From NCBI GenBank assembly GCA_963708045.1, contig OY970181.1, forward strand, positions 67,740-131,739: 64,000 nt of DNA, given 5' to 3'. The notes under the pieces are model-generated. The model saw only the letters and a program-made list of their open reading frames with translations, was not told where the DNA came from and did no database searches. The position numbers and the translations under genes were made by a program. This DNA is from an uncultured bacterium (GTDB lineage Bacteria; Patescibacteriota; Patescibacteriia; CAIQCM01). This document shows positions 3,987 to 64,000 of this stretch, one piece after another; within the stretch, counting starts at the first letter, position 1, and the number at the start of each line of letters is the position of its first letter.

Positions 3987-5266
3987 TGATGATGTTCTTC
4001 CCCACAATCGCAGCCGCCAAAATATGATTCTAATTCTTTACCTAAATCTTTTATTTTAACCATTTTGGCGACGCCCGAGGCGCGGTCTTTTATTTCAACG
4101 GCATCTTCCTTTAGAGTTTTTTCGGAAATAATAATGCGCTTGGGAATACCAATCAGATCGGCGTCGGCGAACTTCTCCCCCGCTCCGCGGTCTTCGCGAT
4201 CGTCATAGAGAACATCCAAGCCGGTTTGCATTAACGCACCATAAAGCGACATCGCTTCTTCTCGCACTTTTTCATCTTTGCTTTTTATTTCAATCAAATG
4301 CAAATCAAATGGCGTAATCGCAGCCGGCCACTTCAAACCATTAGCATCGTTATAAATTTCGGCAATCGTGCCCATCACGCGTGACGGACCAATGCCATAG
4401 CAACCCATCATTACCGGCTGCAACTTACCGGCTTCGTCGGGATATTTAAAACCAAACGGCTCGGTATATTTAGTCTTTAACTTAAAGATATTACCGACTT
4501 CAATTGCTTTTCCTTCGGCAATGACGCCGTCTTTGCATTTCGGACATTTGTCGTCAGCCGCGACTTCGGTAATTTCTTTGTTCTGAGCGTAACGGCACGA
4601 CTTGCAGTAAAAAATCAAATCCTCGCCCGACTCGGTCAGCACCTGAAATTCGTGCGAATATTTTGCAAATGATCCGCCCGACGCTTCAACTAAATACGCA
4701 TCAAGACCGCAGCGCTTGTAAACATTATTGTAAGCAAGAATTGCGCGTTCGTAGAAAGCGTCAAGATCGGCTTCGTCGCGATGAAAGCTGTAAAGATCCT
4801 TCATTGAAAATTCGCGACCGCGAAGCAAACCCGCCTTGGCGCGCGCTTCATTTCTAAATTTATTTTGAATCTGGTAAACCGCGAGCGGCAGGTCTTTGTA
4901 CGACTTAACAAACTTTTGCACGAGCGGGGTGATAATTTCTTCGTGCGTCCAACCAAGCCCGTATTCTTTGTCGCCGTGGCCCTTTAAGTGAAAGAAAACG
5001 TCCTCATCCCAGCGACCAGAGATTTTCCAAGGCTCTTTAGGGGTCAAAGCCGGCAAAGCAACTTCTTCACCGCCAAGCGCGTTCATTTCCTCGCGAATAA
5101 TATTTTTTATTTTGTCGTGAACACGGAGCCCGAGCGGCAAAAAGCTGTACACACCAGCCGTAAGCTGATCAACAAACCCAGCCTTGGTTAAAAGCTCGGC
5201 ATTTTTTGATTCTAATTCAGCAGAAACGTTCTTTACGGTTTTTCCAAAAAGTTTTGAGTACAACAT
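3983..5266 (-). CDS. proS: Prolyl-tRNA synthetase (short form, no editing domain)
   Basis: Class II aaRS motifs are present, the anticodon-binding domain is C-terminal, and a Cys/His-rich zinc tail (CDCGEEHHH) closes the protein. Length is 427 aa. Confidence 0.85.
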   Translation of the reverse strand: MLYSKLFGKTVKNVSAELESKNAELLTKAGFVDQLTAGVYSFLPLGLRVHDKIKNIIREEMNALGGEEVALPALTPKEPWKISGRWDEDVFFHLKGHGDKEYGLGWTHEEIITPLVQKFVKSYKDLPLAVYQIQNKFRNEARAKAGLLRGREFSMKDLYSFHRDEADLDAFYERAILAYNNVYKRCGLDAYLVEASGGSFAKYSHEFQVLTESGEDLIFYCKSCRYAQNKEITEVAADDKCPKCKDGVIAEGKAIEVGNIFKLKTKYTEPFGFKYPDEAGKLQPVMMGCYGIGPSRVMGTIAEIYNDANGLKWPAAITPFDLHLIEIKSKDEKVREEAMSLYGALMQTGLDVLYDDREDRGAGEKFADADLIGIPKRIIISEKTLKEDAVEIKDRASGVAKMVKIKDLGKELESYFGGCDCGEEHHH

Positions 5267-8765: not shown

Positions 8766-8838
8766 GGGTCGGTAGCTCAGCCGGTAGAGCGGAGGACTCT
8801 TAATCCTTAGGTCGTGGGTTCAATCCCCACCCGACCCA
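8766..8838 (+). tRNA. tRNA-Lys (anticodon CTT)
   Basis: Acceptor gggtcgg/ccgaccc, D-stem gctc/gagc, anticodon stem gagga/tcctt with loop ctcttaa, and T-arm gtggg-ttcaatc-cccac. Confidence 0.9.
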
Positions 8839-8844
8839 TAAAAA

Positions 8845-8878
8845 ATATCCCACACTTTCGTGTGGGATATTTTTTATT
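8845..8878 (+). terminator. Rho-independent terminator after tRNA-Lys
   Basis: The hairpin atatcccacactttcgtgtgggatat is followed by tttttattt. Confidence 0.75.
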
Positions 8879-8904
8879 TATTTGATTGTGGGAACGAAAG
8901 AAAA

Positions 8905-9185
8905 CTAAATCAGTAACGAACTCCCCCTACCCCCCCGATGGCCATCGGGGGGCTAAGACTGGTTACAGATTTCATGTCTACCAATGTGCAAAGAGAGGGC
9001 GAGGATAAAATTCTAAAATACAATCTTTTTTACAAAGACAGTGACAAAGGCACGAAAAATCTTAGGCCTCCCTTTGGTAAAAGGGAGGGTAGGGAGAGTT
9101 CTTTTTTATTACGTTAAAATTATTTACGGCGAAACGAACTCCCCCTACCCCCTCTTTTGCAAAGAGTGGGCTAAGACATTACCAG
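8905..9185. repeat. Two direct copies of the 'cgaaacgaactccccctaccccc...gggctaagac' repeat flanking a 'cctccctttggtaaaagggagggt' terminator-like hairpin
   Basis: Seen in sequence at 8910-8960 and 9125-9180. A related copy sits at 46795-46880 with the same hairpin family at 46740-46766. Confidence 0.6.
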
Positions 9186-9270: not shown

Positions 9271-10038
9271 ATGTCCACACTTGCAGACCTGGCAGCAGAA
9301 AACTTCGTGCAACTAGCCGCCAACAAATACCCTGGCCGGATCGTTTTCGCTGGCACGAGCTCTTGGGGCGCGATTCTCCAAGGACTCATCATCACCGTGC
9401 GCAGCAAGCCCAATCAGAATCGCGTCCTCGTTCCAGTGCCCGAGCCGAACCCTAACAACGAAGTAGGAACAGAGTTTGCCGACCCAGTTGCCGCCCACGG
9501 CGTTGATCCAACCAACATTCTCTACTTGGCGATGTCCGAAGATACCCACTCGTTCATAACGAGTAACGGCCAACATACCGCGATCATTTACTCAACGCAT
9601 CGCAACCTCGCCCTAGCCGACGGCCTTATGCAGGCCGGATGGAGGTATGAAGAGGACTCAGCTACAACGCCACGCATCGCCGTCCGCTCTTGGATCGGAT
9701 TGAATAATATCGTTCATACCCAATTCGCTGTTCTCAAAAAATCACTCTTTGACGACAGTGTCGTCGCGAACAACTTCCGCTACGACAACATTCCATCCGG
9801 TTTCGGTTTCTACATCTCAACCTACGAGCACGATGGCAATCCGCCACCTCCGTTCGTCGGCGAGCCGCGGCTGATTCCACTCATCGGATCTGATCTTGCC
9901 GACATCACCGACAGCCTCTGGAACGCTATGAGCCGCGACTATCGCGTGGCGATCGCGGTCAAAGAGATTGACCCCAAAACCTTCAAGTCGTGCACTCACA
10001 TCGTGAACCGCTTTCCAAAGGCTCCGACCGAGCCATAG
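9271..10038 (+). CDS. PurO-like (archaeal-type IMP cyclohydrolase family) protein, tentative
   Basis: The N-terminal GRIVFAG...ITVRSKPNQNR and the internal TPRIA motif resemble the PF07826 PurO pattern as recalled from memory. Local GC is up to about 62%, and the gene is flanked by repeat elements. Confidence 0.4.
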   Translation: MSTLADLAAENFVQLAANKYPGRIVFAGTSSWGAILQGLIITVRSKPNQNRVLVPVPEPNPNNEVGTEFADPVAAHGVDPTNILYLAMSEDTHSFITSNGQHTAIIYSTHRNLALADGLMQAGWRYEEDSATTPRIAVRSWIGLNNIVHTQFAVLKKSLFDDSVVANNFRYDNIPSGFGFYISTYEHDGNPPPPFVGEPRLIPLIGSDLADITDSLWNAMSRDYRVAIAVKEIDPKTFKSCTHIVNRFPKAPTEP

Positions 10039-10192
10039 ACTTACGAAGCAAACCCCTCGCAGACAGCGCGCCCGTCCAGTACGGCGCGCTGTTCTCTTTT
10101 GTCTATAAAAATAAAATAAATCAAGCTCATAACAAAACCTCCCATCTTTCTACGATCGTGGAAAGATGGGAGGTTTTAAAATTTAAAATACA

Positions 10193-10230
10193 GCATCACA
10201 TTAATTCGCGATCGCGAATTAATGTGATGC
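10193..10230. repeat. Perfect 38-bp palindrome gcatcacattaattcgcga|tcgcgaattaatgtgatgc
   Basis: Seen in sequence. It lies between the convergent genes at 9271-10038 and pilT. Hairpins at 10141-10170 and 10291-10310 flank it. Confidence 0.8.
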
Positions 10231-10373
10231 ATAAAAATTTTTTAATAAACATTAATCCGAAGCGAAAAAATAAATTAATAAAAACTTCACCAAAAGGTGA
10301 AGTTTTTATTAATTTTTAAAACTATACCCTTCAGCCAAAGGCTGATCCACCTCAGGCGGAAAACGCTAAAAAA

Positions 10374-14857: not shown

Positions 14858-15589
14858 ATGGGAAAAAATTCAATTTATAAAAACCAGGTAAAAATATTGG
14901 ATAATGTTTTTGATATTCAAAAAATTATTTCCGTCCGTTTTTCCAATACCAAAACCGACGCCTATAAAAAATATAACGACACTGCCTGCACTATTTTGGC
15001 GCGATGTTTTAAAAACAAAATTTTAACCTATATAGATCGCCGCGTTGGCCAGTCTTGTCCGGGTGGTAATTATTTTTTAGGCATCATCCCTGCAAAAAAA
15101 AATGCGCTGCGCGGAACATACGTTATGGACGAAAAAGTTTTTAAAACTAATGCCGGTTGCGACGCGTTTATAAACAAACTACCAAAATTTCCAAGAGCGG
15201 CGCAAAAAAATTTCGTGTTGTTTTCTCCACTCTTTAAAGAAACAAAAAAACCAGACATCATAATTTTACTCGTAAACGCCGCGCAAGTCGGGCGGCTTTT
15301 GGGCTTGGGCGCGTATCGTCAATTTTCTTATCCGCAAATTCTTCCGGCAATTTCAACTTGCGCCAGTATTTACGCGCCGCTTGACACGAACAGCATTCAC
15401 CTTAACTTTATTGATTATTTTGACAGATATTATCAAGGAAAACAGGCTGGTGGATTATTATGGAGCGATACGGACATAATCGTTTCTATGCCATATCGTC
15501 TTTTTTGCAAATTAATCCACGACGCCCCGCTTTCGGCCCACGGCAGTTATAAGCCAAATATCAAACCGCAAAAAATTGATCCGATATAA
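14858..15589 (+). CDS. Hypothetical protein, tentatively DUF169 family
   Basis: A 243-aa ORF that directly follows the rSAM gene after a hairpin. The family assignment comes from motif memory (SCPGGNYFLG) and is unverified. Confidence 0.45.
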   Translation: MGKNSIYKNQVKILDNVFDIQKIISVRFSNTKTDAYKKYNDTACTILARCFKNKILTYIDRRVGQSCPGGNYFLGIIPAKKNALRGTYVMDEKVFKTNAGCDAFINKLPKFPRAAQKNFVLFSPLFKETKKPDIIILLVNAAQVGRLLGLGAYRQFSYPQILPAISTCASIYAPLDTNSIHLNFIDYFDRYYQGKQAGGLLWSDTDIIVSMPYRLFCKLIHDAPLSAHGSYKPNIKPQKIDPI

Positions 15590-15590
15590 A

Positions 15591-15620
15591 AATACTCCGC
15601 CAATTGGCGGAGTATTTTAT
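15591..15620. terminator. Bidirectional terminator between DUF169 gene and gyrA
   Basis: aaaatactccgccaattggcggagtatttt. Confidence 0.7.
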
Positions 15621-15629
15621 TGATAAATT

Positions 15630-18094
15630 TTAGACAATGGTGACCGTGGACAGCGCGTCGTTTTCTTCCTTAAAGCGCATAATGCGAACGCCTTGGGTGG
15701 CGCGGCCGATCGTCCGAATCTCGCCCAAAGCCAAACGAATAACTTGGCCATGATTGGAGATCGCAACGATATCGCGTTCATCTTTGGCCGAAACAACAAA
15801 GCCGGTTACGATCTCGCCCGTCTTGGCCGTGACTTCGGCCGTCTTAATGCCGGAGCCGCCGCGCCCTTGCAAACGATATTCTTTCAAGTTAGTGCGTTTG
15901 CCAAAACCGTGCGCCATGACGACCAAAAGTTCCAGCAAATTCTTTTTTACTTCTTCGGAAGAAACAACGTCCATGCCGACAATGTAGTCACCGCGCTTTA
16001 ACTTCATTCCGCGGACGCCCGAAGCGGTACGTCCCATAGAACGAACATCTTTTTCTTCAAAGCGGATGGACATTCCTTTGCCGGTAATGATGACGATTTC
16101 GTCTTTGCCGGTTGAAGGACGAACATATTCAAGTGAATCCTGTTCGTGGAGTTTAAGCGCGATCAAGCCAGAGCGGCGAACTTGGGCAAATTCAGCGATC
16201 TCGGTTTTCTTAATCACACCCTCTTTTGTAATCATCACAAGATACTTAGCGTCGGGCATATCCGAAATCGGCAAAACAGCCGTAACTTTTTCGCTTGGCG
16301 CAAGCTGGAGGAAATTAACCAGTGCCTGTCCCTTGGCCGTTCGCGAGGCCGGCGGAATATCATATGCCTTAAGTTGGAAGACGCGGCCGCGCGACGTAAA
16401 GAAGAGAACATCGGCGTGCGTGCTCGTTGTAAACAACTGTTCAACCATATCTTCTTCTTTGGTCGCAACGCCGATCACGCCCTTGCCGCCGCGCGATTGG
16501 GCGTGGAACGTGTCCGGCGGCACGCGTTTTACATAGCCATCACCGGTAATAATGACAATCGTGGACTCATCAGGAATAACGTCTTCCATTGAAAATTCTT
16601 TAACCCCATGCGCGACGACTTGCGTCCGGCGCTCGTCGCCAAATTTGTCGCGAAGCCCAATGACCTCGTCGCGGACGATTTGCAAAATGCGTTTGGGCGA
16701 CGCCAAAATCGCCATCAGTTCTTTGATAATCTTTTTCTTTTCTTCAAGTTCGGTTTCAACCTTAATTCGTTCCAGGTTGGCAAGCTGCTGCAAGCGCATT
16801 TCCAAAATCGCAACCGTCTGCGCGTCCGAAAGCTTAAACTGCTTGATCAAATTAATCTTGGCTTCGTCTTTGTCCGTAGATTTTTTGATCGTCGCAATGA
16901 CCTTGTCAATATGAAGAATGGCAATGGATAATCCTTCCAAAATATGAGCCCGTTCTTTGGCGCGCATAAGGTCAAATTCGGTGCGCTTTCGGACAACGAC
17001 TTCGCGATGCTTAATATATTCTTCTAACAAAGTTTTTAAATTAAGCACGCGCGGCTGGATACCATCCACGAGCGACAGCATATTCACATGGAAAGTTTCC
17101 TGCAGCTGCGTCTGTTGGAACAAACGATTTAAAACTTTCTTTGGGTACGCGTCTTTTTTAAGTTCAATTACAACGCGCACGCCGTCCTTGTTGGACTCGT
17201 CGCGAATATCGCGGATGCCGTCAATTTTTTTGTCGCGAACCAGATCGGCGATTTTTTCCAAAAGCGTCGCTTTGTTTACCTGATAAGGAATTTCATTGAC
17301 GATGATCTTAAAAGCGCCGGCGCTATCTTCAACGATTTCCGTTTTGGCGCGCAAGTAATCGGCCCGCGACCAGTAACATAAGCCGAGAGAATTTCTTTCT
17401 TGTTATAAATAATGCCGCCGGTCGGAAAATCAGGTCCTTGAACAATATTGGTTAAATCTTCAACCGTTGAATCTGGCTCGTCAATAACTTTGACAATCGC
17501 GTTAGTAATTTCTGTCAGGTTGTGCGGCGGAATGTTCGTGGCCATGCCGACGGCAATGCCGACCGTGCCGTTAAGAAGCAAGTTGGGCAATTTTCCCGGA
17601 AACACCGACGGCTCTTTGTGCGAACCATCATAGTTCGGAATAAACGGAACCGTTTCTTTATCAAGATCAAAAAGAAGTTCTTCGGCGATCGGCGAAAGTT
17701 TGGCTTCGGTATAACGCATGGCCGCGGCGCCATCGCCGTCCATTGAGCCAAAGTTTCCTTGGCCATTCACGAGCGGATAGCGCATAGAGAAATCCTGCGC
17801 CATGCGCACCATTGATTCGTAAACCGCGGAGTCGCCGTGCGGATGGTATTTACCAAGCACTTCGCCGACCACAGTCGCCGATTTTTTGAATTTAGCGTTA
17901 GCGCGAAGGCCGATCGCCCACATCGCATAAAGAATGCGGCGATGCACTGGTTTCATGCCGTCTCTGGAGTCGGGAAGGGCGCGAGCAACAATGACTGACA
18001 TTGCGTAGTCTAGATACGACTCCTGCATTTCCGTCGTAATCTGCCGTTCGTTTATCTTACCGATAAGAAATTCTTTTGGTTGTTTATCACTCAT
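15630..18094 (-). CDS. gyrA: DNA gyrase subunit A, interrupted by an apparent -1/+1 frameshift near 17355-17375
   Basis: The N-terminal ORF (17276..18094) has the GyrA active-site region and ends in an out-of-frame tail (...[14 protein letters not shown]). The C-terminal ORF (15630..17354) begins [10 protein letters not shown], whose homologous sequence is normally contiguous with the N-terminal part. The +1 frame across the junction reads ...RAKTEIVED. Confidence 0.85.
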
Positions 18095-33542: not shown

Positions 33543-33675
33543 AATTATTATATTCTATCACAAAATTAAACCACTTAGACAGACACCCCTTTTTCTAAGT
33601 TTATCCGATCGGATAAACTTAGAAAAAAACGAGGCCCGCCCAGGATGAGCAGGGCGGGCCGAGCGAAAGCGGCGG

Positions 33676-33993
33676 CTACTTTTTGTGCGAGATTCGGTAA
33701 CGAAACTCCGCAAACCAGCCTGGAGCGATCGTGCCGATACACAAGGTAATCGGAAACACAAAGGTCCCCACAATTGACGCCGCGAGAAGGATCTTTTCGG
33801 CGCGCGATTTGGGAAGACGTTTTTCGCGCCACATTCTTACCAAGTCGTAGATGACCGAAATGACCACAACAAACACGAACAAGTACAAGACGCCGATAAT
33901 AAACTGAGAAATGAACCTTCTATGCATTTTTAGTCCTTTCCCAAAGGTACGGTTGTCACGCAAAATAATAGCTCCAGCCGCACGTTTTGTCAA
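33676..33993 (-). CDS. Small membrane protein (hypothetical)
   Basis: A 105-aa ORF with two TM helices. The start is uncertain. Confidence 0.45.
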   Translation of the reverse strand: MTKRAAGAIILRDNRTFGKGLKMHRRFISQFIIGVLYLFVFVVVISVIYDLVRMWREKRLPKSRAEKILLAASIVGTFVFPITLCIGTIAPGWFAEFRYRISHKK

Positions 33994-34080
33994 CGGACAG
34001 GACTCGGCCTAATTGCCTTTTTAAAAACGTTGATATAAGATGCGGGCAGCACATTTTATCAACTTTTTGGAGGTTTAACA

Positions 34081-34886
34081 TGCCCGACGAACATCAATTG
34101 ATGCCAATCGGCCGGGCGCGTTTAATCGCCCTCGGCAGCGAAACTGGACGACTTGGCGAACCAACAAAGATGCCTGGTCCCTCTTTCGGCATATCGGCCA
34201 CGCACTGCATACGCGGAAAAGTTCTTGCCGCCGACCCGACGTCCGTCTGCGCCCATTGCTACGCTCTCACCAACTATTATCTGACCAAAGACGAGGTCCT
34301 AATTGCGCACAAACGACGGTTTGCCGGGCTTACGCATCCAGAATGGGTGCCGGCCATGGTGGCGCTAATTTTGCACGAGACCACAAACGAGTTTGGGAAA
34401 TATTTCCGTTGGCACGACTCTGGCGACCTCCAAGGTATTTGGCACCTCTTAAACATCGTCAAGGTCTGCATAGAGACGCCGCGAGTAAGGCACTGGCTTC
34501 CGACCCACGAGCCGAACATGGTCGCTGATTATCTCAAGCTCGTCCATTACGGTGTCCACCCAGCGTTTCCGGAAAACCTCTGCCTTCGTATTAGCGCCGA
34601 CTACATTGGGAAGCCGCCAAAAAAAATCGCAGGTCTGGAAATGATCCCAACGCACACGGCGCATCGCGGACACGGAAAACAATACCGCGTTAAGGTGTCC
34701 GACCGTCTCGGCGATTCGTTTGAGTGCGACTCCTACACGCGCGCCAAAAAAAAGGGCACCGCTGGTTTTTGCGGCGACTGTCGCGCCTGTTGGAACAACC
34801 GCATAAAAAACGTTTCGTTTCCGGTTCACGGAGAAAAATGGGACAAATATCAGCTTAGGTTGTTTCCGCTGTCCCCAACCAGATAA
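34081..34886 (+). CDS. Cys-rich hypothetical protein (CX2C and CX2CX2C motifs), possibly phage-associated family
   Basis: Starts at MPDEHQLMPIG inside ORF 33987..34886. Carries CAHCYA, CGDCRAC and WHDSGD. GC is about 55%. Resemblance to a phage 'gp88-like' family is from memory and unverified. Confidence 0.55.
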
Positions 34887-37456: not shown

Positions 37457-37601
37457 TAACCAAGCGCACTCGTGTCTGCCTAACGCAGACGCGACAAAGA
37501 GCACGCTCTTTGCCACCGAGCGCGCTTTTTGTTTTAAACAAATCCCACCCCGATATATATCGGGGTGGGATTTGTTTATTATTTGTTTGCGATTTTATTT
37601 T

Positions 37602-39523: not shown

Positions 39524-39709
39524 ATTCTTTTTTAAAGAAATATTATTTAGAAGAAATTTTTATAAAATTGTTCAGGCGCGAACTAAATAACTAAATACAG
39601 ATAAATTCACTATTTATTATACCACTTTTTTAGGTGCAAGACAATAACCTTTATTAACCATCGTTTAAAACCAAAGAACAGTACTATTGTGATATAATTT
39701 ATTTCTATG

Positions 39710-40201
39710 ATGGCCAATTTTAAAAAAGGCTTTACCTTAATTGAGCTATTGGTTGTAATTGCAATCATCGGCCTGCTTTCAACAATCGCCGTTATCTCGC
39801 TTAGTAATACTAGGGTCAAAGCTCGGGACGCCAAACGCGCCGCTGATATGCGCCAAATATTGACTGCGCTTAATCTTTACCAAGACCAGTACGACTGTTT
39901 GCCAATTACCAACCTTTCCACTTGTCCGGGGAATGGTGGTTATAGTGAATGGAACGCGGGCGCGTGGGATTATAGTTCGCAGGGCGGATTCCTAACTTTT
40001 CTGCAAACGTCTGGAATTATGTCCAAGGTACCCGTTGACCCGATCAACAATATGACCGGCGACGGCACCCCCGCCGGCAGTTATTCTTATAGATATTTTT
40101 GTTATCCTTCTGGACCGCATTTGGTTTATTTTAGAGAGTCTGATTATACCCAGATCGGCGTACTCGTAACAGGAACCGACTCTGGTTACGTCTGCAAGTA
40201 A
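39710..40201 (+). CDS. Type IV pilin / pseudopilin
   Basis: The class III signal KKGFTLIELLVVIAIIGLLS is the canonical prepilin cleavage and methylation motif. Confidence 0.85.
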   Translation: MANFKKGFTLIELLVVIAIIGLLSTIAVISLSNTRVKARDAKRAADMRQILTALNLYQDQYDCLPITNLSTCPGNGGYSEWNAGAWDYSSQGGFLTFLQTSGIMSKVPVDPINNMTGDGTPAGSYSYRYFCYPSGPHLVYFRESDYTQIGVLVTGTDSGYVCK

Positions 40202-40329
40202 AAATACCGCCCCGATGGCCATCGGGGCGGTATTTTTATAATCTTGGGAACCGATAGTTGACCAGAAGAGGGTTTTCTGTTATGTTGTTCTGAACAAAAT
40301 CGCCAGTAACGATTTTGGGGGAGGAACAA

Positions 40330-41298
40330 ATGACTAAGCTCTTTTCATCTACCATCATCGCATTCCTAATTCTCGGCATTGGTAACGAGGTTCGCGCCGA
40401 AGTTACGCGCAACCAGCCTGCCGCGGCGGTAAATACCGTCAACGTCACGAACGACCCGCTAAAACAACTTGAGGGTCAAGGGCGTTTTGACATCATTCAG
40501 ATGTCGGCGCCGCCCGCCGAATGGCCGGAGCAGACGTTTGGGCCAACCAAACTCATCCTTGTTCGCTTTGCGAAAGAGTTCAACAGTTATTTAGATATCC
40601 TTAGCGAACTCCAAGTGCGCGGAATGATGCCGGCCAATTACCGCGAGCTGCTTTGCTACGCGGCGCAAGCGCCGGCGGCATACAAAGGCAAATTCACCGT
40701 GGTCGCGTTCGGCTCGTCCGTGGAAATGCCAAGCGGAAAAATTTCGTGGCAAAGCTATGGCGTAAACAACACCGGCAAGCGCTTTCTCTTCTATGTTGTG
40801 GAAGGCGACGGCTGGCCGGAGGAGTTTCTCTATCTTGCCAAGTACCAACCGCCAAAGCCAGACAATCGTCCGGCGAAAAAAACCGTCGTGAGCGCCGCGG
40901 ACTGGAAAAAAATGCAAGAGATCACCGCCATTATTAAGGCGGAGATACTGAAGCACAAAAAGAACGGCACCAACCCCAACAAGTTCGTTAGGAGGGTTGA
41001 GGAAACCACCCTAACCTACCACCTTATCGCGATTGCGGCCTATGATCAGCCAAAGACGCTTGCGCAAGCAAACGAACTCGCCGAGGTGCCCGAGGATTTC
41101 GTTTTAGGAAAAGCAATGTTTGAATTCAATGTCATCCAAGGCAATGAAACGAAATTGACCATCGGATGTTTTATTGAGCACTGCAGAAAGCGAACCGTTC
41201 ATATCCCGCTCACAATGGAAGGAATGGGGATCACCGACGCGCCGATTCTAATAGACATTGATTACTCAACGCGGCTCATCCCTATCCCCACACAGTGA
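40330..41298 (+). CDS. Secreted hypothetical protein (cassette 1)
   Basis: Signal peptide MTKLFSSTIIAFLILGIGNEVRA. Length is about 322 aa. Confidence 0.55.
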   Translation: MTKLFSSTIIAFLILGIGNEVRAEVTRNQPAAAVNTVNVTNDPLKQLEGQGRFDIIQMSAPPAEWPEQTFGPTKLILVRFAKEFNSYLDILSELQVRGMMPANYRELLCYAAQAPAAYKGKFTVVAFGSSVEMPSGKISWQSYGVNNTGKRFLFYVVEGDGWPEEFLYLAKYQPPKPDNRPAKKTVVSAADWKKMQEITAIIKAEILKHKKNGTNPNKFVRRVEETTLTYHLIAIAAYDQPKTLAQANELAEVPEDFVLGKAMFEFNVIQGNETKLTIGCFIEHCRKRTVHIPLTMEGMGITDAPILIDIDYSTRLIPIPTQ

Positions 41299-41332
41299 CC
41301 GTCTTGACCGACAACGCAAAGGAGACGACACA

Positions 41333-41587
41333 ATGACAAAGATCTTTTCGGTACAGTTTGAATTGCCGCTACCCGAGCGAGACCACATACCGCCAAACGC
41401 TGCCTTTGAACAACAGAAAGAGAACGATAAAAAACGGGTGTTGGGCGACTTGGAGCAAGGAATCAACACCTTCGTGAAATCGCTCAAAAAAGAAGAATTC
41501 GTTGGGATTCAGTGGCTCCAAACCACAACAGTGAATACATACGGATCTTTTGTCCAACTGACTGCGATTGTGACGTACACGTTCTGA
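41333..41587 (+). CDS. Small hypothetical protein (84 aa)
   Basis: RBS aaggag precedes ATG 41333. Terminator ccacttcggtgg follows. Confidence 0.45.
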   Translation: MTKIFSVQFELPLPERDHIPPNAAFEQQKENDKKRVLGDLEQGINTFVKSLKKEEFVGIQWLQTTTVNTYGSFVQLTAIVTYTF

Positions 41588-41617
41588 GCCACACCTCGCA
41601 CTCTCGACCAAAACGCC

Positions 41618-41867
41618 TACCACTTCGGTGGTGGGCGTTTTTATTTTTTCTTGTTTTCCGATCAAACCAAGAGCGTTCCTTTTTCTTCCAACTTTTCCCG
41701 ATCGGGAAAAGTTGGAAGAAAAATATTTTAATAAAATTATCAAGAATGTCCACTATAACGGCAAACTGGCATAGCCACTTATTTGGATAAACAAAAAACC
41801 ACCCCGATTAAAGGTTGATCTTTTTTTGCTGAGCCGATCTCAGTCAAAATAGGTAAGCCAAGTTTGT
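41618..41867. repeat. Inter-cassette junction copy 1: terminator + palindrome/AT-box module M1a (41683-41747) + module M2a (41790-41867)
   Basis: M1a is about 90% identical to 42785-42848. M2a is about 85% identical to 43700-43777. Confidence 0.7.
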
Positions 41868-41952
41868 ATCATTGACAACCTTGCCGTTGAGGTTCATCGT
41901 CTAGTCAACGATCAACACAATCGTTCTTTCAACAACCAAAAGGAGCGGGGCC

Positions 41953-42693
41953 ATGAAAGTAACAAATTTGTTTTCGCAAATTTTCCTGACAAGCGCATTC
42001 CTTATATTTCTCTCCGATGGAATCAAGGCCGACGAACCAACAATTGAAACCGACACCGATTTTGTTGAAACCTCTTTGAATACAGAGCCATCAATCACTG
42101 TCTACCCAACATTCAGGCACGACGCTCGTCCGGTCAACATTGATGGTTACGGTATCTATTCAACTTTTGGTATATCCAAGGAGATCGTCAAAGTTGACGA
42201 CAACGGTAGTGTTTCATTTAGTCCCTGGTCATGCCGAGAAGATTATTGTCTATTATTTTGCTTATATTGGCATGTTTTACGCCGACAATTTGACCAAATC
42301 ATTGACCTGAGTCAGGCCGACGGCATTGAAGTAACTATCAATGTTGAAAAACCTCTAAAAGTCAATGTAAAGAGGGATGGAAAATGTAGGACGCACTTGC
42401 GTGTCGTACTCTGCGATCGTGATAAAACGCTCACCGGTCGTAGAAATAACAACTTTGACAACCAATGGATTTTTGACCTACCAAAGTCAGTTCTCTATGA
42501 GAAGCATTCTGTCACTTTGAGGGTTCCATTTAGCAAGCTTCGCAAGCCGAGTCAGGACGAAAAAGGATCGAGAATAAGTTCCCTGCGTCGTTTCCGGCCG
42601 ACATATACAACGGCATACGAAATTGCGATTATTGGAATCAGCTGGAACGATTTTGGAATCACTAGCGTAATTACCTACAAGGACAAGAAATAA
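41953..42693 (+). CDS. Secreted hypothetical protein (cassette 2)
   Basis: Signal peptide MKVTNLFSQIFLTSAFLIFLSDGIKA. Length is 246 aa. Confidence 0.55.
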   Translation: MKVTNLFSQIFLTSAFLIFLSDGIKADEPTIETDTDFVETSLNTEPSITVYPTFRHDARPVNIDGYGIYSTFGISKEIVKVDDNGSVSFSPWSCREDYCLLFCLYWHVLRRQFDQIIDLSQADGIEVTINVEKPLKVNVKRDGKCRTHLRVVLCDRDKTLTGRRNNNFDNQWIFDLPKSVLYEKHSVTLRVPFSKLRKPSQDEKGSRISSLRRFRPTYTTAYEIAIIGISWNDFGITSVITYKDKK

Positions 42694-42727
42694 TCCAACT
42701 AGCGTGCCACGCCGACATCTAGAGCGC

Positions 42728-42848
42728 CTGCCACTTCGGTGACGGGCGCTTTCTTATATAAACAAAATCGGGAATATTTATTTTTTCTTCCAACTTTTAC
42801 CGATCGGTAAAAGTTGGAAGAAAATATTTTAATAAAATTATCAAGAAT
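42728..42848. repeat. Inter-cassette junction copy 2: terminator + M1b
   Basis: ccacttcggtgacgggcg ... ttcttccaacttttaccgatcggtaaaagttggaagaaaatattttaataaaattatcaagaat. Confidence 0.7.
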
Positions 42849-42914
42849 AATATTAACGAAAAACGGCCGCTCCGATGATTATCGGGGCGGCCGTTTGATG
42901 AGATTCCGCTTGCG

Positions 42915-43451
42915 CTACGTATTGAGTTGGTAGGTGAGCGGCACGATCAAACTGAAGTTTTCCCGTTTCCAGGACATTTCGCCGACCGCGTTGTAAAGCA
43001 GACCAATGCCGATTGCGAAGTTGTTGACCCTGATGCCGTAGGGCACGACGTAAACACCAAGAACGATGTCGGCCGAGGTCTGCGGTTTTTGCACTTGAAA
43101 ACCGGCGCCCCATTCCCAAAAGGAAATGCTCACGACTTCGTTTTTGCCATCAGCGCCGCGATAGCTAGTCCTTTTTAGGTATTGCAGATTTGAACTGTGC
43201 AGTTCAAGCGCCGCCGCCTTATCAAGCAGGCCGATCCTGGCCGTCTCCATATTGATGGACAGAGCCGAAAGCGCCGGACCAATGCTAAAGTACGGCCGCC
43301 AACCAGCGCGGCAAAAACTCGGCGCACCGGCCTTGTTTAGGTCGCGATCGGCTGGGCATTCTTCCGCCAATGCCATTTGTGGCAAGAGCAGTGCAGCGAA
43401 CGCCACAACCAAGAACAAACGAGAACGAATTAAATGCCAAAGAACGGACAT
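42915..43451 (-). CDS. Secreted hypothetical protein (inserted between M1b and M2b)
   Basis: Signal peptide MSVLWHLIRSRLFLVVAFAALLLPQMALA. The gene is bounded by hairpins at 42866-42895 and 43477-43507. Confidence 0.55.
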   Translation of the reverse strand: MSVLWHLIRSRLFLVVAFAALLLPQMALAEECPADRDLNKAGAPSFCRAGWRPYFSIGPALSALSINMETARIGLLDKAAALELHSSNLQYLKRTSYRGADGKNEVVSISFWEWGAGFQVQKPQTSADIVLGVYVVPYGIRVNNFAIGIGLLYNAVGEMSWKRENFSLIVPLTYQLNT

Positions 43452-43699
43452 GGTGCCTCCTACTGTTTTACCCGTCTTAGTTCAGATCACCCGATCTGAA
43501 CTAAGGTAAGGGTTTCCGACCGCATCTAAACAATTTGTCGTAAAAATGTCAACCAATTGCACTTGATAAACCTTGCTATCAGATCCAGTATGTGCAAATT
43601 TTGCACATACTGAGTCGGTGCCCAGATCATTGTCTTTAAAGATATTGCAAATACGTTTAGTAATCAAAAAACACAAGCAGATAACACAAAAGAGACTAA

Positions 43700-43777
43700 T
43701 AACAAAAGACCACCCCGATTAAAGGGTGATCTTTTTTGCTGAGCCGACCTCGGTTCAAGTAGGCAAGCGAAGTTGAG
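43700..43777. repeat. Module M2b, adjacent to the tRNA-Glu 3' end
   Basis: taacaaaagaccaccccgattaaagggtgatcttttttgctgagccgacctcggttcaagtaggcaagcgaagttgag. Confidence 0.7.
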
Positions 43778-43813
43778 CTTCGCCGTCACTCTTAGAACCG
43801 AGCTGAGCTCGGG

Positions 43814-43888
43814 TAGCCCCAACCGGATTCGAACCGGTGTACCCAGAATGAAAATCTGGTGTCCTAGGCCGGACTAGACGATGGGGCC
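43814..43888 (-). tRNA. tRNA-Glu (anticodon TTC)
   Basis: The minus-strand fold ggccccatcgtctagtccggcctaggacaccagattttcattctgggtacaccggttcgaatccggttggggcta has anticodon loop ttTTCat and T-loop ttcgaat. Confidence 0.85.
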
Positions 43889-43893
43889 TTATT

Positions 43894-43980
43894 GGCACGT
43901 GGCACGTGGCTCGTGGCTTTTGGCAAATGGACTCCGCCTTATACCGTACGTTCTCTGCCGGTTTTGCTACGTGCCATGTG
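43894..43980. repeat. cacgtgg-heptamer inverted-repeat element
   Basis: ggcacgtggcacgtggctcgtggc ... gctacgtgccatgtgctatatgctatgtgctatta. Confidence 0.6.
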
Positions 43981-44085
43981 CTATATGCTATGTGCTATTA
44001 GCCAACGAAGGGTATTCTTACATAAACTAAAAGATATTTCAAGAGGTGATCCGCGCCAATGATATTTAATGAAATAATTTGCTTT

Positions 44086-62159: not shown

Positions 62160-64000
62160 ATGAAGCCTATGGATAACCCCAAATTTAACGAGCCGATAAA
62201 AGCGGATTATCCTCTACCTGACCAATATTCTCCATCCCAAAATACAGAACGCCGAGAAAAATTGGACGAGATTCGTGCTGAATTAAACAGACTAGCCACC
62301 ACACCAAAAAATCATCCAGTGGACACGTCTGCCGATTTGCAAGCAATCCGCCAAGAACTCGGTTCGGAAGTACCCGCTGCGATCGGACAAGCCCAAGAGA
62401 AGACAGACCAAGAAGCGCGCTTCTTGGTTGATTTGGAAAATAGGCGCAAGGATGAACTTGCGCGTGAAGAAAAAATTTTGTCTTTTCTTATAGAGAGTTT
62501 ACCAGAAACCGAAGAACGTATCGGTAAAAAAATGGACCCGCACTCTGAAGTAGCAGTCGTCATCCCCGCTTATAGCGAGCGTGATTTTATTTTGCGACCG
62601 TTAGAATCTTTGGCGGAACAAAGAAATGTCTCAACCGATCAATTTGAGGTCATCGTCGTCGTCAACAATCCGGATGATACGCCCGCCCGTACGCCCGACG
62701 AAACAGACGATGACTATCGTCGTAAAATGGAACAGTACCGCAAGTCGCTCATGGAAAATCAGGAAACACTCAAGCTCATCCGCTTGCTAAATGATGAATC
62801 AACCGACGTCGCCGTAAACGCCGAGGAAATGGAAATAATAAAAAAAATCCGTCTCTCTGGTCTAAAAGTCTACGCCATAGACAAAGCTAGTCACGGAAAA
62901 ACACTTCCACCGAGCGAAGCCAATGTCGGCGGCGCTAGAAACCGCGGCGTTGCCGAGGCATGCGCTCGTTTCTACGAGGCAGGGAGAAACGGCATCATCG
63001 CCCAATCCGATGCTGACACCAAATTTGATGAACATTATATAGAGAACCTGATCAGAACTTTTCAGGAACGTCCCGAAATCGTCGGCTTAACAGGCAACTC
63101 CCAGTTTGAGGAATTGGAAGGCAACAAAGAGTTGGGATTGATTCTGTATAAATACGACGAGGCCTTGTATGAATACAAGGGGCTCCTAAAAAAATTATCA
63201 ATGGCACCAGAGGAAAAGAAGAGCGAGTCGGACGTGTTTTTTAGTGGTGCCAATATGGCCAGCCGTGCTTTTGAAACAGCAATCGTTGGCGGCGTTCCAA
63301 AAATCAGCGGCGGTGAAGATCCGGCGTTCGGAAAACGTCTTGAGACGGTTGGAAAAATCGTAAGAGTTGAAGATATCATCACAATGCCAGCCTTTCGTTT
63401 CTCTGCCCGAACAGCAAAGGACTCGGGGCAAGGACAAAGCAATATACGTTTTGCTGAGAACCTCCGAAAGCATGGCGCCTTGATGGTCAAAAATCCCGAA
63501 ATATCTTTGCGCGAAAGAGAAATTAAAGTAAGCATGGAAGAAATTTTTGCCACAGAAAAAGCAAAGCAAATTTCTCCCCAAGAAATCAGCGAAATTTTTT
63601 CTATCAACGGAAAGCATTTATTAACAGACAGCGAGTCCGAACTTTTAAGCGCTAAGCTAAAAGAAGCGGCTGACCCAAGGCAACTATCCAGCGATCCAGA
63701 GCTAGCTTTTTTAAAAACAAACTTTAGACAAGCCCTTAATGACTCGCTACCAGAATTACCCTTTGACGTGGCCACGGCTAAAATCATAGATTTATTTAAA
63801 AGAGATCCAGGTGTAGCTCATAAATACGAAATTAATCTTGCGAAAATCTTAGAAAAAGAAAAGATTAAGTTAGAAAAACGAGCACAGCTCCTCAATAAAA
63901 TTTTTGAGGTGTCTTTCCGTGACAAGCCCCAAAAACCAGACAGTAAGTGGGTATTCCGGGTACTGCAAGACAATAGAGCGGAGCTCGGTTTGGATGAAAA
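62160..64000 (+). CDS. Family 2 glycosyltransferase (GT-A fold) with long C-terminal extension; partial, runs off the window end
   Basis: Hand translation from ATG 62160: ...VAVVIPAYSERDFILRPLESLAEQ...FEVIVVVNNPDD...SDADTKFD (GT2 motifs with D-x-D). No stop codon before 64000. Confidence 0.65.
   Translation, partial: MKPMDNPKFNEPIKADYPLPDQYSPSQNTERREKLDEIRAELNRLATTPKNHPVDTSADLQAIRQELGSEVPAAIGQAQEKTDQEARFLVDLENRRKDELAREEKILSFLIESLPETEERIGKKMDPHSEVAVVIPAYSERDFILRPLESLAEQRNVSTDQFEVIVVVNNPDDTPARTPDETDDDYRRKMEQYRKSLMENQETLKLIRLLNDESTDVAVNAEEMEIIKKIRLSGLKVYAIDKASHGKTLPPSEANVGGARNRGVAEACARFYEAGRNGIIAQSDADTKFDEHYIENLIRTFQERPEIVGLTGNSQFEELEGNKELGLILYKYDEALYEYKGLLKKLSMAPEEKKSESDVFFSGANMASRAFETAIVGGVPKISGGEDPAFGKRLETVGKIVRVEDIITMPAFRFSARTAKDSGQGQSNIRFAENLRKHGALMVKNPEISLREREIKVSMEEIFATEKAKQISPQEISEIFSINGKHLLTDSESELLSAKLKEAADPRQLSSDPELAFLKTNFRQALNDSLPELPFDVATAKIIDLFKRDPGVAHKYEINLAKILEKEKIKLEKRAQLLNKIFEVSFRDKPQKPDSKWVFRVLQDNRAELGLDE

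Follow-up and report, generated by a model that had tools for sequence, protein, structure and literature searches.

Within the window analyzed here, a 64-kb stretch of contig OY970181.1 from an uncultured member of the Patescibacteriota, the region at 40.2-43.8 kb carries four genes, P322, P84, P246, and P178, which are separated by reused noncoding modules (M1 and M2) and abut a tRNA-Glu gene. We propose, with a probability of roughly 0.55, that recombination at the 3' side of tRNA-Glu assembled this region into a small mosaic islet, within a small (1.19-Mb contig) and probably CPR-type genome, and that its junction modules are duplicated terminator spacers. With the same confidence, we attribute it to ordinary genome plasticity at a tRNA-linked hot-spot and not to a dedicated cassette machine. 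The original prediction had pictured an array of secreted-protein cassettes with duplicated junction modules and a nested insertion. The modules are truly repeated. M1a (41614-41747) and M1b (42725-42848) lie 1.1 kb apart and are 76% identical over 135 alignment columns (E = 3e-20), and M2a (41790-41864) and M2b (43701-43774) lie 1.9 kb apart and are 87% identical over 75 nt (E = 6e-16), so the similarity does not fall to the level of generic terminator hairpins (<70% over <40 bp).

The features of the islet are listed below with their window coordinates and strands.

40199-40238, unstranded: bidirectional terminator of the pilin gene (39707-40201) and left edge of the islet, a 40-nt perfect palindrome (TAAAAATACCGCCCCGATGG/CCATCGGGGCGGTATTTTTA)
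40330-41298, plus: P322 gene, open reading frame (ORF) of 322 aa, predicted secreted
41333-41587, plus: P84 gene, ORF of 84 aa
41610-41650, plus: T1a, GC-rich intrinsic terminator after P84 with a C(UUCG)G loop and a U-run (terminator scan; fold)
41680-41723, unstranded: M1a core, 44-nt perfect palindrome centered on CGATCG, a 20-bp hairpin in the fold
41723-41747, plus: AT box a, matching AT box b at 25/25 positions
41790-41866, unstranded: M2a, truncated tRNA-Glu trailer copy and distal att-like repeat, a bidirectional terminator (~41797-41828) plus tail
41867-41952, plus: native 5' region of P246 (TTGACAACC ... AAGGAGCG)
41953-42693, plus: P246 gene, ORF of 246 aa, predicted secreted
42721-42759, plus: T1b, terminator after P246 homologous to T1a (73% identity), with a C(UUCG)G loop (fold)
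42782-42824, unstranded: M1b core palindrome, 43 nt; relative to M1a it has a symmetric C>A / G>T exchange and a difference of one A
42824-42848, plus: AT box b (25/25 to AT box a)
42861-42896, minus: P178 terminator hairpin of the CCGAT...ATCGG type
42915-43451, minus: P178 gene, ORF of 178 aa, predicted secreted
43476-43612, minus: putative leader and promoter region of P178, read from the sequence
43701-43776, minus: M2b, terminator (43735-43704) plus 3' arm of the trailer hairpin, the tRNA-proximal repeat
43777-43811, minus: 5' arm of the trailer hairpin, with no counterpart in M2a
43812-43888, minus: tRNA-Glu(ttc), the islet anchor (ARAGORN; 58 bits in Rfam)

The genes appear to form three autonomous units, P322-P84, P246, and P178, each with its own terminator(s) and a weak promoter-like motif. 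P322 and P84 are probably one operon, with a gap of 35 nt, and a promoter-like site at 40258-40286 precedes them in the promoter scan. The predicted content of three signal-peptide proteins and one small protein holds: P322, P246, and P178 show a basic N-terminus, a hydrophobic stretch, and a VRA, IKA, or ALA motif as read from their sequences, N-terminal helices are visible in the models of two of the three, and P84 has no signal peptide. Contigs of an independent short-read assembly (Logan; coordinates derived from gene positions) span 40209-41709, 41694-42812, and 42795-43731 and reproduce all junctions, which makes misassembly unlikely. These contigs end within the palindromes.

Trailer-derived repeats at tRNA-Glu

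The minus-strand tRNA-Glu gene has its 3' end toward the array, and the islet adjoins that side as had been predicted. The minus strand from 43812 to 43697 folds into a long hairpin (43811-43738) followed by a strong terminator (43735-43704), with -54 kcal/mol and a z-score of -6.5. M2b, made up of the 3' arm of this hairpin and the terminator, thus sits in place as the native trailer of tRNA-Glu. M2a has the terminator and the same single arm, lacks the partner arm, and alone folds weakly (z-score -1.3 to -2); it is a truncated copy of that trailer. The terminator parts of the two copies are 92% identical and the tails, the orphaned arm in M2a, 76%. The stretches past M2 (43777-43811 vs 41867-41901) are only 49% identical by global alignment. 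The homology ends at 41866, and from ~41882 onward the sequence resembles that upstream of P246 in a relative (contig L037, where motifs of the P246 5' region recur at 9955-10000), which places a recombination breakpoint at ~41866-41882. M2a and M2b form 76-nt direct repeats around 41867-43700, a segment of ~1.8 kb with P246, M1b, and P178. With M2a as a truncated copy of the native M2b, the pair would behave like att-type direct repeats, derived from the trailer and terminator of the tRNA gene and not from the tRNA body.

Relatives point to the same tRNA gene as a recombination boundary. The closest homologue of P246 (P0009; 38% identity by phmmer, 35% by BLASTP) is encoded on contigs L037-L042, and the tRNA-Glu of the window is 92% identical to that of L037-L040. 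The product of L037 13721-13978 (minus strand) is a homologue of P84, with 52% amino acid identity and 60% DNA identity over 356 nt. On L037, the homologues of P246 and P84 both lie within a 10.8-kb block, less than 5 kb from tRNA-Glu. The order P84, P246, tRNA-Glu and the orientation of P84 to the tRNA gene are the same as in the window, with different intervening genes and P246 inverted. The linkage of both homologues to tRNA-Glu in so distant a relative means that neither P84 nor P246 is a free-floating cassette. The block itself (L037 8907-19734) is 99.96% identical to L038 8907-19734 over at least 10.8 kb from the last tRNA bases onward, whereas on the IleRS/Fic side of the tRNA gene the two contigs are 79-86% identical. 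L038 carries an extra islet of 3.7 kb between ~48-nt copies (5193-5239 and 8907-8953) of the last 7 nt of the tRNA plus its terminator, and L037 carries an islet of 4.2 kb between 74-nt copies (4634-4707 and 8828-8901, 97% identical) of the 5' part of the tRNA gene. The shared block and the bracketed islets indicate that tRNA-Glu is a recombination boundary in the wider lineage, and bracketing of the islet by M2 repeats is the geometry seen in these relatives at the same tRNA gene. Moreover, a 52-nt terminator module (D1) recurs in the L037 block, where it marks three junctions and in one case has no gene before it; terminator modules thus seem to get copied between junctions in the L037/L038 lineage.

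The islet would have arisen when a resident arrangement beside tRNA-Glu recombined with other DNA at a terminator or trailer sequence common to both and so gained a small segment. Donor or circular DNA would have entered through an integrase encoded elsewhere or through homologous recombination, leaving M2a and M2b as scars, or M1a and M1b under the alternative pairing. In one model, a circle carrying P246, M1, and P178 would have integrated at M2 (the 1.8-kb segment), and in the other, a circle carrying M2 and P246 would have integrated at M1 (the 1.1-kb segment bracketed by M1a and M1b). Both are single-step and fit the geometry equally well. M1 would be the common 3' flank of the plus-strand units, and its palindrome would most likely be a second hairpin or insulator terminator whose symmetry is kept by the same process as that of other intergenic hairpins. 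Today, the modules would mainly be terminators that insulate three independent units.

The predicted split of M1b and M2b is real: 849 nt (42852-43700) separate them and hold the minus-strand gene P178 with its own terminator. Its interpretation as a nested insertion of P178 into an M1b-M2b unit probably has the polarity wrong, because M2b sits in its native tRNA-trailer context and P178-type genes are neighbors of tRNA genes elsewhere. M1a and M2a, predicted to be contiguous, are nearly so (M1a core ending at ~41750-41770, M2a beginning at 41790).

The M1 module and palindromes across the window

Each copy of M1 comprises a GC-rich terminator hairpin (T1), an AT-rich palindrome of 44 nt, and an AT box of 25 nt, as had been proposed. 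The 34-nt palindrome of the original prediction occurs exactly at 41685-41718, recurs at 42787-42820 with a C>A and the mirror G>T substitution, and had no match in 100 shuffles. With one substitution given, a second would land by chance at the mirrored position, and with the complementary base, about once in 129 cases. Identity between the copies is uneven: 73% in T1, 30% in the spacer between T1 and palindrome, which is essentially unalignable, 41 of 44 positions in the palindrome, and 24 of 27 in the AT box region, so that the core of palindrome and AT box reaches ~93%. The 25-nt AT-box sequence has no third copy in the window. M1a folds with a z-score of -8.6, and the palindrome within it forms an uninterrupted 20-bp stem.

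The modules look like terminators. T1a, T1b, and the M2 hairpins are GC-containing hairpins with a U-run at the 3' ends of units, and T1, the M1 palindrome, and M2 are all terminator-like in the terminator scan, the palindrome scoring on the plus strand, where it is followed by UAUUUUAAU. In searches for known RNA families on the islet, the tRNA alone passes, the matches at M1 and M2 being sub-threshold microRNA and small-RNA noise.

Perfect palindromes are common in this window. Nine loop-less ones with arms of at least 9 nt (9-22 nt) were found, compared with 0.63 in simulated sequence; 4 of the 9, and in addition one near-perfect palindrome, are centered on CGATCG, a word that occurs 34 times in the window against ~13 expected. 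Examples outside the islet lie at 10193-10230, 15589-15618, 33590-33627, 37535-37578, and 62407-62428. This excess suggests either a mutational process that perfects palindromes or a function at the DNA level. As it is window-wide, the symmetry of M1 need not imply a special function. A GC hairpin with a U-run, followed after ~30 nt by a long CGATCG-centered palindrome, recurs at 10047-10177 and 33661-33590 (minus strand). The palindrome of the latter is a third, diverged M1-like one:

33590-33627, unstranded: TTTTTCT..CCGATCGG..AGAAAAA, after the GC hairpin 33634-33661, ~50 nt upstream of tsaD

The M1-type architecture is therefore not confined to the islet, and the M1 cores would be the closest pair within a genome-wide habit.

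In the intergenic region 10040-10373, between convergent genes, four successive hairpins occur, two of which are CGATCG-centered palindromes of 38-44 nt; the one at 10193-10230 has no U-run. Most strong intrinsic terminators of the window have the stem top CCCCGAT-N0-4-ATCGGGG (or CCGAT..ATCGG), including those at 8931, 30752, 37535, 40199, 42861, 46845, 57015, and in M2 (41797 and 43708). Thirteen of the 16 CCCCGAT/ATCGGGG words are intergenic. CCCCGAT was also considered as an uptake-sequence-like word and rejected, since it is not over-represented in the window and is confined to hairpin tops.

Outside the window, the M1 palindrome is absent from genome representatives and from viral contigs in public scans. 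One metagenome contig (L032 1505-1530) contains the exact 26-nt inner palindrome CAACTTTTCCCGATCGGGAAAAGTTG between unrelated convergent genes, a match that probably arose by chance among terminator hairpins.

Alternative explanations and known mobile systems

Several findings weigh against the islet interpretation. Integrase genes are absent from the window and from the examined parts of the relatives' islands. Unlike a fresh att site, the M2 repeat begins 36 nt past the tRNA and has just 87% identity, and M1 lies both inside and outside the M2-bracketed segment, which the model alone leaves unexplained. In the searched collections, the genome of the window has no close relative, and no empty site or alternative arrangement was seen. 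The U-tract behind the M1 palindrome (UAUUUUAAU) is weak for a terminator, and core conservation is far above that of the adjoining spacer, a contrast that hints at a sequence-specific role beyond termination. The GC content of the islet genes at third codon positions (GC3) alternates along the islet (0.625, 0.55, 0.43, and 0.62; window mean 0.49, standard deviation 0.07), with P322 (0.625) at +2 standard deviations and P178 at 0.62. This agrees with a mosaic origin and is not decisive, as the deviations stay inside ~2 standard deviations of a broad distribution.

A purely local history, with a segmental duplication of the M1-M2 spacer, later acquisition or loss of genes, divergence, and no tRNA-targeted integration, the proximity of tRNA-Glu being incidental, appears unlikely, though some points favor it. 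The repeat pairs interleave (M1a, M2a, M1b, M2b) as duplication plus indels would give, the repeats are old (76-87% identical), no integrase is present, and L037 likewise duplicates a terminator module locally. However, at least three steps (duplication, deletion, and insertion) would be required, and neither the fact that M2a is specifically a copy of a tRNA trailer nor the tRNA-bounded islets and transferred block of the relatives at the same tRNA would be explained. It is more doubtful that the M1 core is a regulatory element, an operator of a dimeric protein with a promoter or the start of a small or antisense RNA, that was co-opted at two units and kept by selection. The contrast between core (~93%) and flanking spacer (30%), the symmetric substitutions (~1/129), and the form of the palindrome, perfect and without a loop as is typical of protein sites, would all suit such an element, as would the similar palindrome ~50 nt upstream of tsaD and a minus-strand promoter-like site (10/12) that overlaps AT box a. 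But neither copy drives a gene, as the strong terminator M2a comes behind M1a and M1b runs into a convergent gene from its 3' end; M1b does not retain the -35 element of the minus-strand site, all plus-strand promoters stay below the threshold of the scan, and perfect palindromes are a genome-wide habit here.

The other alternatives make the palindromes themselves mobile or recombining sites. We consider it very unlikely that CGATCG-centered palindromes are genome-wide recombinogenic or protein-bound sites that shuffle secreted-protein units through an enzyme encoded elsewhere, independently of integrons and anchored at tRNA-Glu, and would give slightly less weight still to a true site-specific cassette system, integron-like or new, in which the M1 palindromes are the sites at which a recombinase encoded elsewhere inserts, excises, or inverts secreted-protein cassettes. 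For the latter speak the palindrome behind each plus-strand unit, the half-sites TTCCAAC / GTTGGAA (6/7 to the attC R-box consensus), the fact that each core is its own reverse complement (an inverted-repeat pair, 95%), and the inversion of P246 relative to P84 and tRNA-Glu between L037 and the window. Yet the perfect palindrome offers no extrahelical bases and no unpaired spacer, it lies ~90 nt past the stop codon behind a separate terminator, and the units have their own terminator(s) and promoter-like motifs. Only two close copies exist, with no integrase in 64 kb, the core is absent from genome, metagenome, and viral collections except for the unrelated 26-nt hairpin, and the flanking T1 and AT box stand in direct and not inverted order. 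Least credible is a miniature mobile element, similar to a miniature inverted-repeat transposable element (MITE) or a repetitive extragenic palindromic (REP) sequence, inserted independently behind two genes. M1 is indeed palindromic and intergenic after stop codons, with weakly similar architectures at 10071-10179 and 33590, but it appears to have neither target-site duplications nor discrete ends, the homology takes in T1, a hairpin of its own that is set off from the palindrome by a spacer too diverged to align, and the window holds no transposase or REP-associated tyrosine transposase (RAYT) and only these two close copies.

No Phage_integrase, other recombinase, or transposase family was found among the ORFs of at least 150 aa and the gap ORFs of the window, including RAYT and Y1 transposases, so the search for a site-specific recombinase that had been recommended turned up none encoded there. 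The absence would be compatible with a cluster of attC sites lacking integron-integrases (CALIN), which lies far from the integrase. In the attC sites of integrons, the R''/R' boxes read RYYYAAC / GTTRRRY, the center holds an unpaired spacer, and the L box has extrahelical bases. The islet resembles integron arrays, such as those of Vibrio cholerae repeats, in the imperfectly conserved palindromic element after successive ORFs and in the R-box-like half-sites, which match the consensus at 6/7 positions on reading. It differs in that the palindrome is perfect, with neither extrahelical bases nor a central spacer, and begins 92 nt (P84) or 88 nt (P246) past the stop codon behind a separate terminator, in contrast to promoterless ORFs bounded by attC; P178 lies on the opposite strand with its own promoter-like region, in contrast to the single orientation of integron cassettes; and there are two sites only, with no IntI, attI, or Pc. 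An integron cassette array was thus rejected for want of an integrase and for the bulge-free stem, the ~90-nt distance from the stop codon, and the mixed gene orientation. Membership in MITE or REP families was likewise provisionally rejected in view of the missing target-site duplication, discrete ends, and transposase and the presence of two close copies plus one or two weak relatives in 64 kb. With REP sequences and bacterial interspersed mosaic elements (BIMEs), the window shares long hairpin-forming palindromes downstream of genes and beside terminators, as a window-wide family with a common CGATCG center. In contrast to those elements, the palindromes of this genome differ strongly between sites, with no RAYT, the copies being counted within 64 kb.

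In position, the islet fits tRNA-linked islands. Like these, it sits next to the 3' end of a tRNA gene and carries lineage-specific secreted proteins of mosaic composition. The direct repeat that brackets the insert, taken from the 3' flank of the tRNA, would correspond to the att repeats of such islands, and in relatives the same tRNA is the site of islets that vary between strains and of a block shared horizontally. Unlike in these, the repeat lies 36 nt past the tRNA in the trailer and terminator (76 nt, 87%), the insert is just 1.8 kb, and no integrase is seen, neither in the window nor at the end of the islet. For the 20-kb stretches of L037 and L038 no integrase is on record either, the Pfam matches listed being HTH_17, Fic, and VanY only.

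The minimal mobile elements of Neisseria are small gene units between conserved flanks that are swapped by recombination, with repeated intergenic junction modules that double as terminators. In both respects, small units and junction modules doubling as terminators, the islet is similar to these and to the intergenic mosaic elements (e.g., PMC1797815). The islet differs in that it gives no evidence for uptake sequences, many copies, or population-level exchange, and lineage and sequences are unrelated and different.

Taken as a hot-spot, then, the original idea is borne out in part: a recombination-prone tRNA-Glu locus is supported by the relatives' islets and the 10.8-kb block, and a dedicated cassette system is not, given autonomous units with their own terminators, no attC hallmarks, and no recombinase in the window. 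The locus is a concrete, well-bounded case of small surface or secreted-protein genes gathering beside a tRNA gene in a reduced genome, and in relatives the same tRNA-Glu bounds recent horizontal exchange (10.8 kb at 99.96% identity vs ~80-86% elsewhere). For annotation it advises caution, as reused junction modules may be nothing more than duplicated terminators and scars of a tRNA trailer. A new mechanism would follow only if the palindromes were active sites.

The islet proteins and neighboring sequence

P322, P84, P246, and P178 have no match in Pfam, NCBIfam, or PHROGs. Together with MgtA, encoded upstream of tRNA-Glu, they are singletons at 90% identity, all on one contig of 1,188,223 bp, and P84 has a strain variant (P0005) that differs by one residue. 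P322 is an ORFan, with only itself found among 5.8 billion protein clusters. P246 had no relative in a word-indexed search, and a full HMMER search retrieved 8 distant homologues of ~230 aa with the common motifs DGYGIY, WxSIRREF, LRxTLxD, and AYEI. Its structural model (predicted local distance difference test score, pLDDT, 79) has best Foldseek matches to CBM11 (E = 1e-6, template modeling score 0.46/0.62), CBM30, and a complex-I assembly intermediate (7zkq), and one distant homologue has a weak CIA30 Pfam match, which P246 itself lacks. On the strength of the Foldseek matches and of the CIA30 match, P246 is a predicted secreted protein with a putative CBM11/CIA30-like beta-sandwich fold. 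A search by sequence for a solved structure of the family returned no match, and the profile of the P246 family found no further member in the window or in related loci.

P178 belongs to a rare family with two homologues (58-59% identity), both near tRNA-Ala(ggc) in both lineages available; this proximity is suggestive and statistically not strong. Its model is all-beta with low confidence (pLDDT 64) and without a significant fold match. Upstream of P178, we noted a hairpin of 13 bp (43476-43505), the promoter-like sequence TTGACA-17-TTAGAT, and, further upstream of that site, a 27-nt palindrome at 43586-43612 (CAGTATGTGCAAA-T-TTTGCACATACTG). The palindrome may be an operator and the hairpin a structure of the 5' untranslated region.

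Several other leads were followed and dropped. No paralogy was found among the islet proteins, and the resemblance of P84 to P246 at the C-terminus lacks significance (E = 0.3, database of five proteins). An origin of the islet from a phage or plasmid was rejected, with no DNA similarity except in the tRNA and no PHROG match. A candidate for the P246 family in IMG/VR is a motif coincidence within a phage structural gene, and the other loci of the family lie on contigs that are too short or in unrelated context. The nearest MgtA (72%, contig L001) shares no common neighborhood with the window.

Around the islet, tandem heptamers occur between tRNA-Glu and the end of mgtA, just upstream of tRNA-Glu (TGGCACG x3.6 at 43892-43925; TGCTATA x2.9 at 43972-43998). 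At 33987-34886, between tsaD and the pilin/islet region, a GP88-family protein of phage type (PF17338 / phrog_1392) with high GC3 is encoded among family-less ORFs, and the entire 33.6-43.8 kb stretch may be accessory DNA. Elsewhere in the window, GyrA (minus strand) is present as two overlapping ORFs, 15630-17354 for the C-terminal 574 aa and 17276-18094 for the N-terminal 272 aa, with an overlap of 79 nt, which may reflect a frameshift or a sequencing error or be a genuine split.

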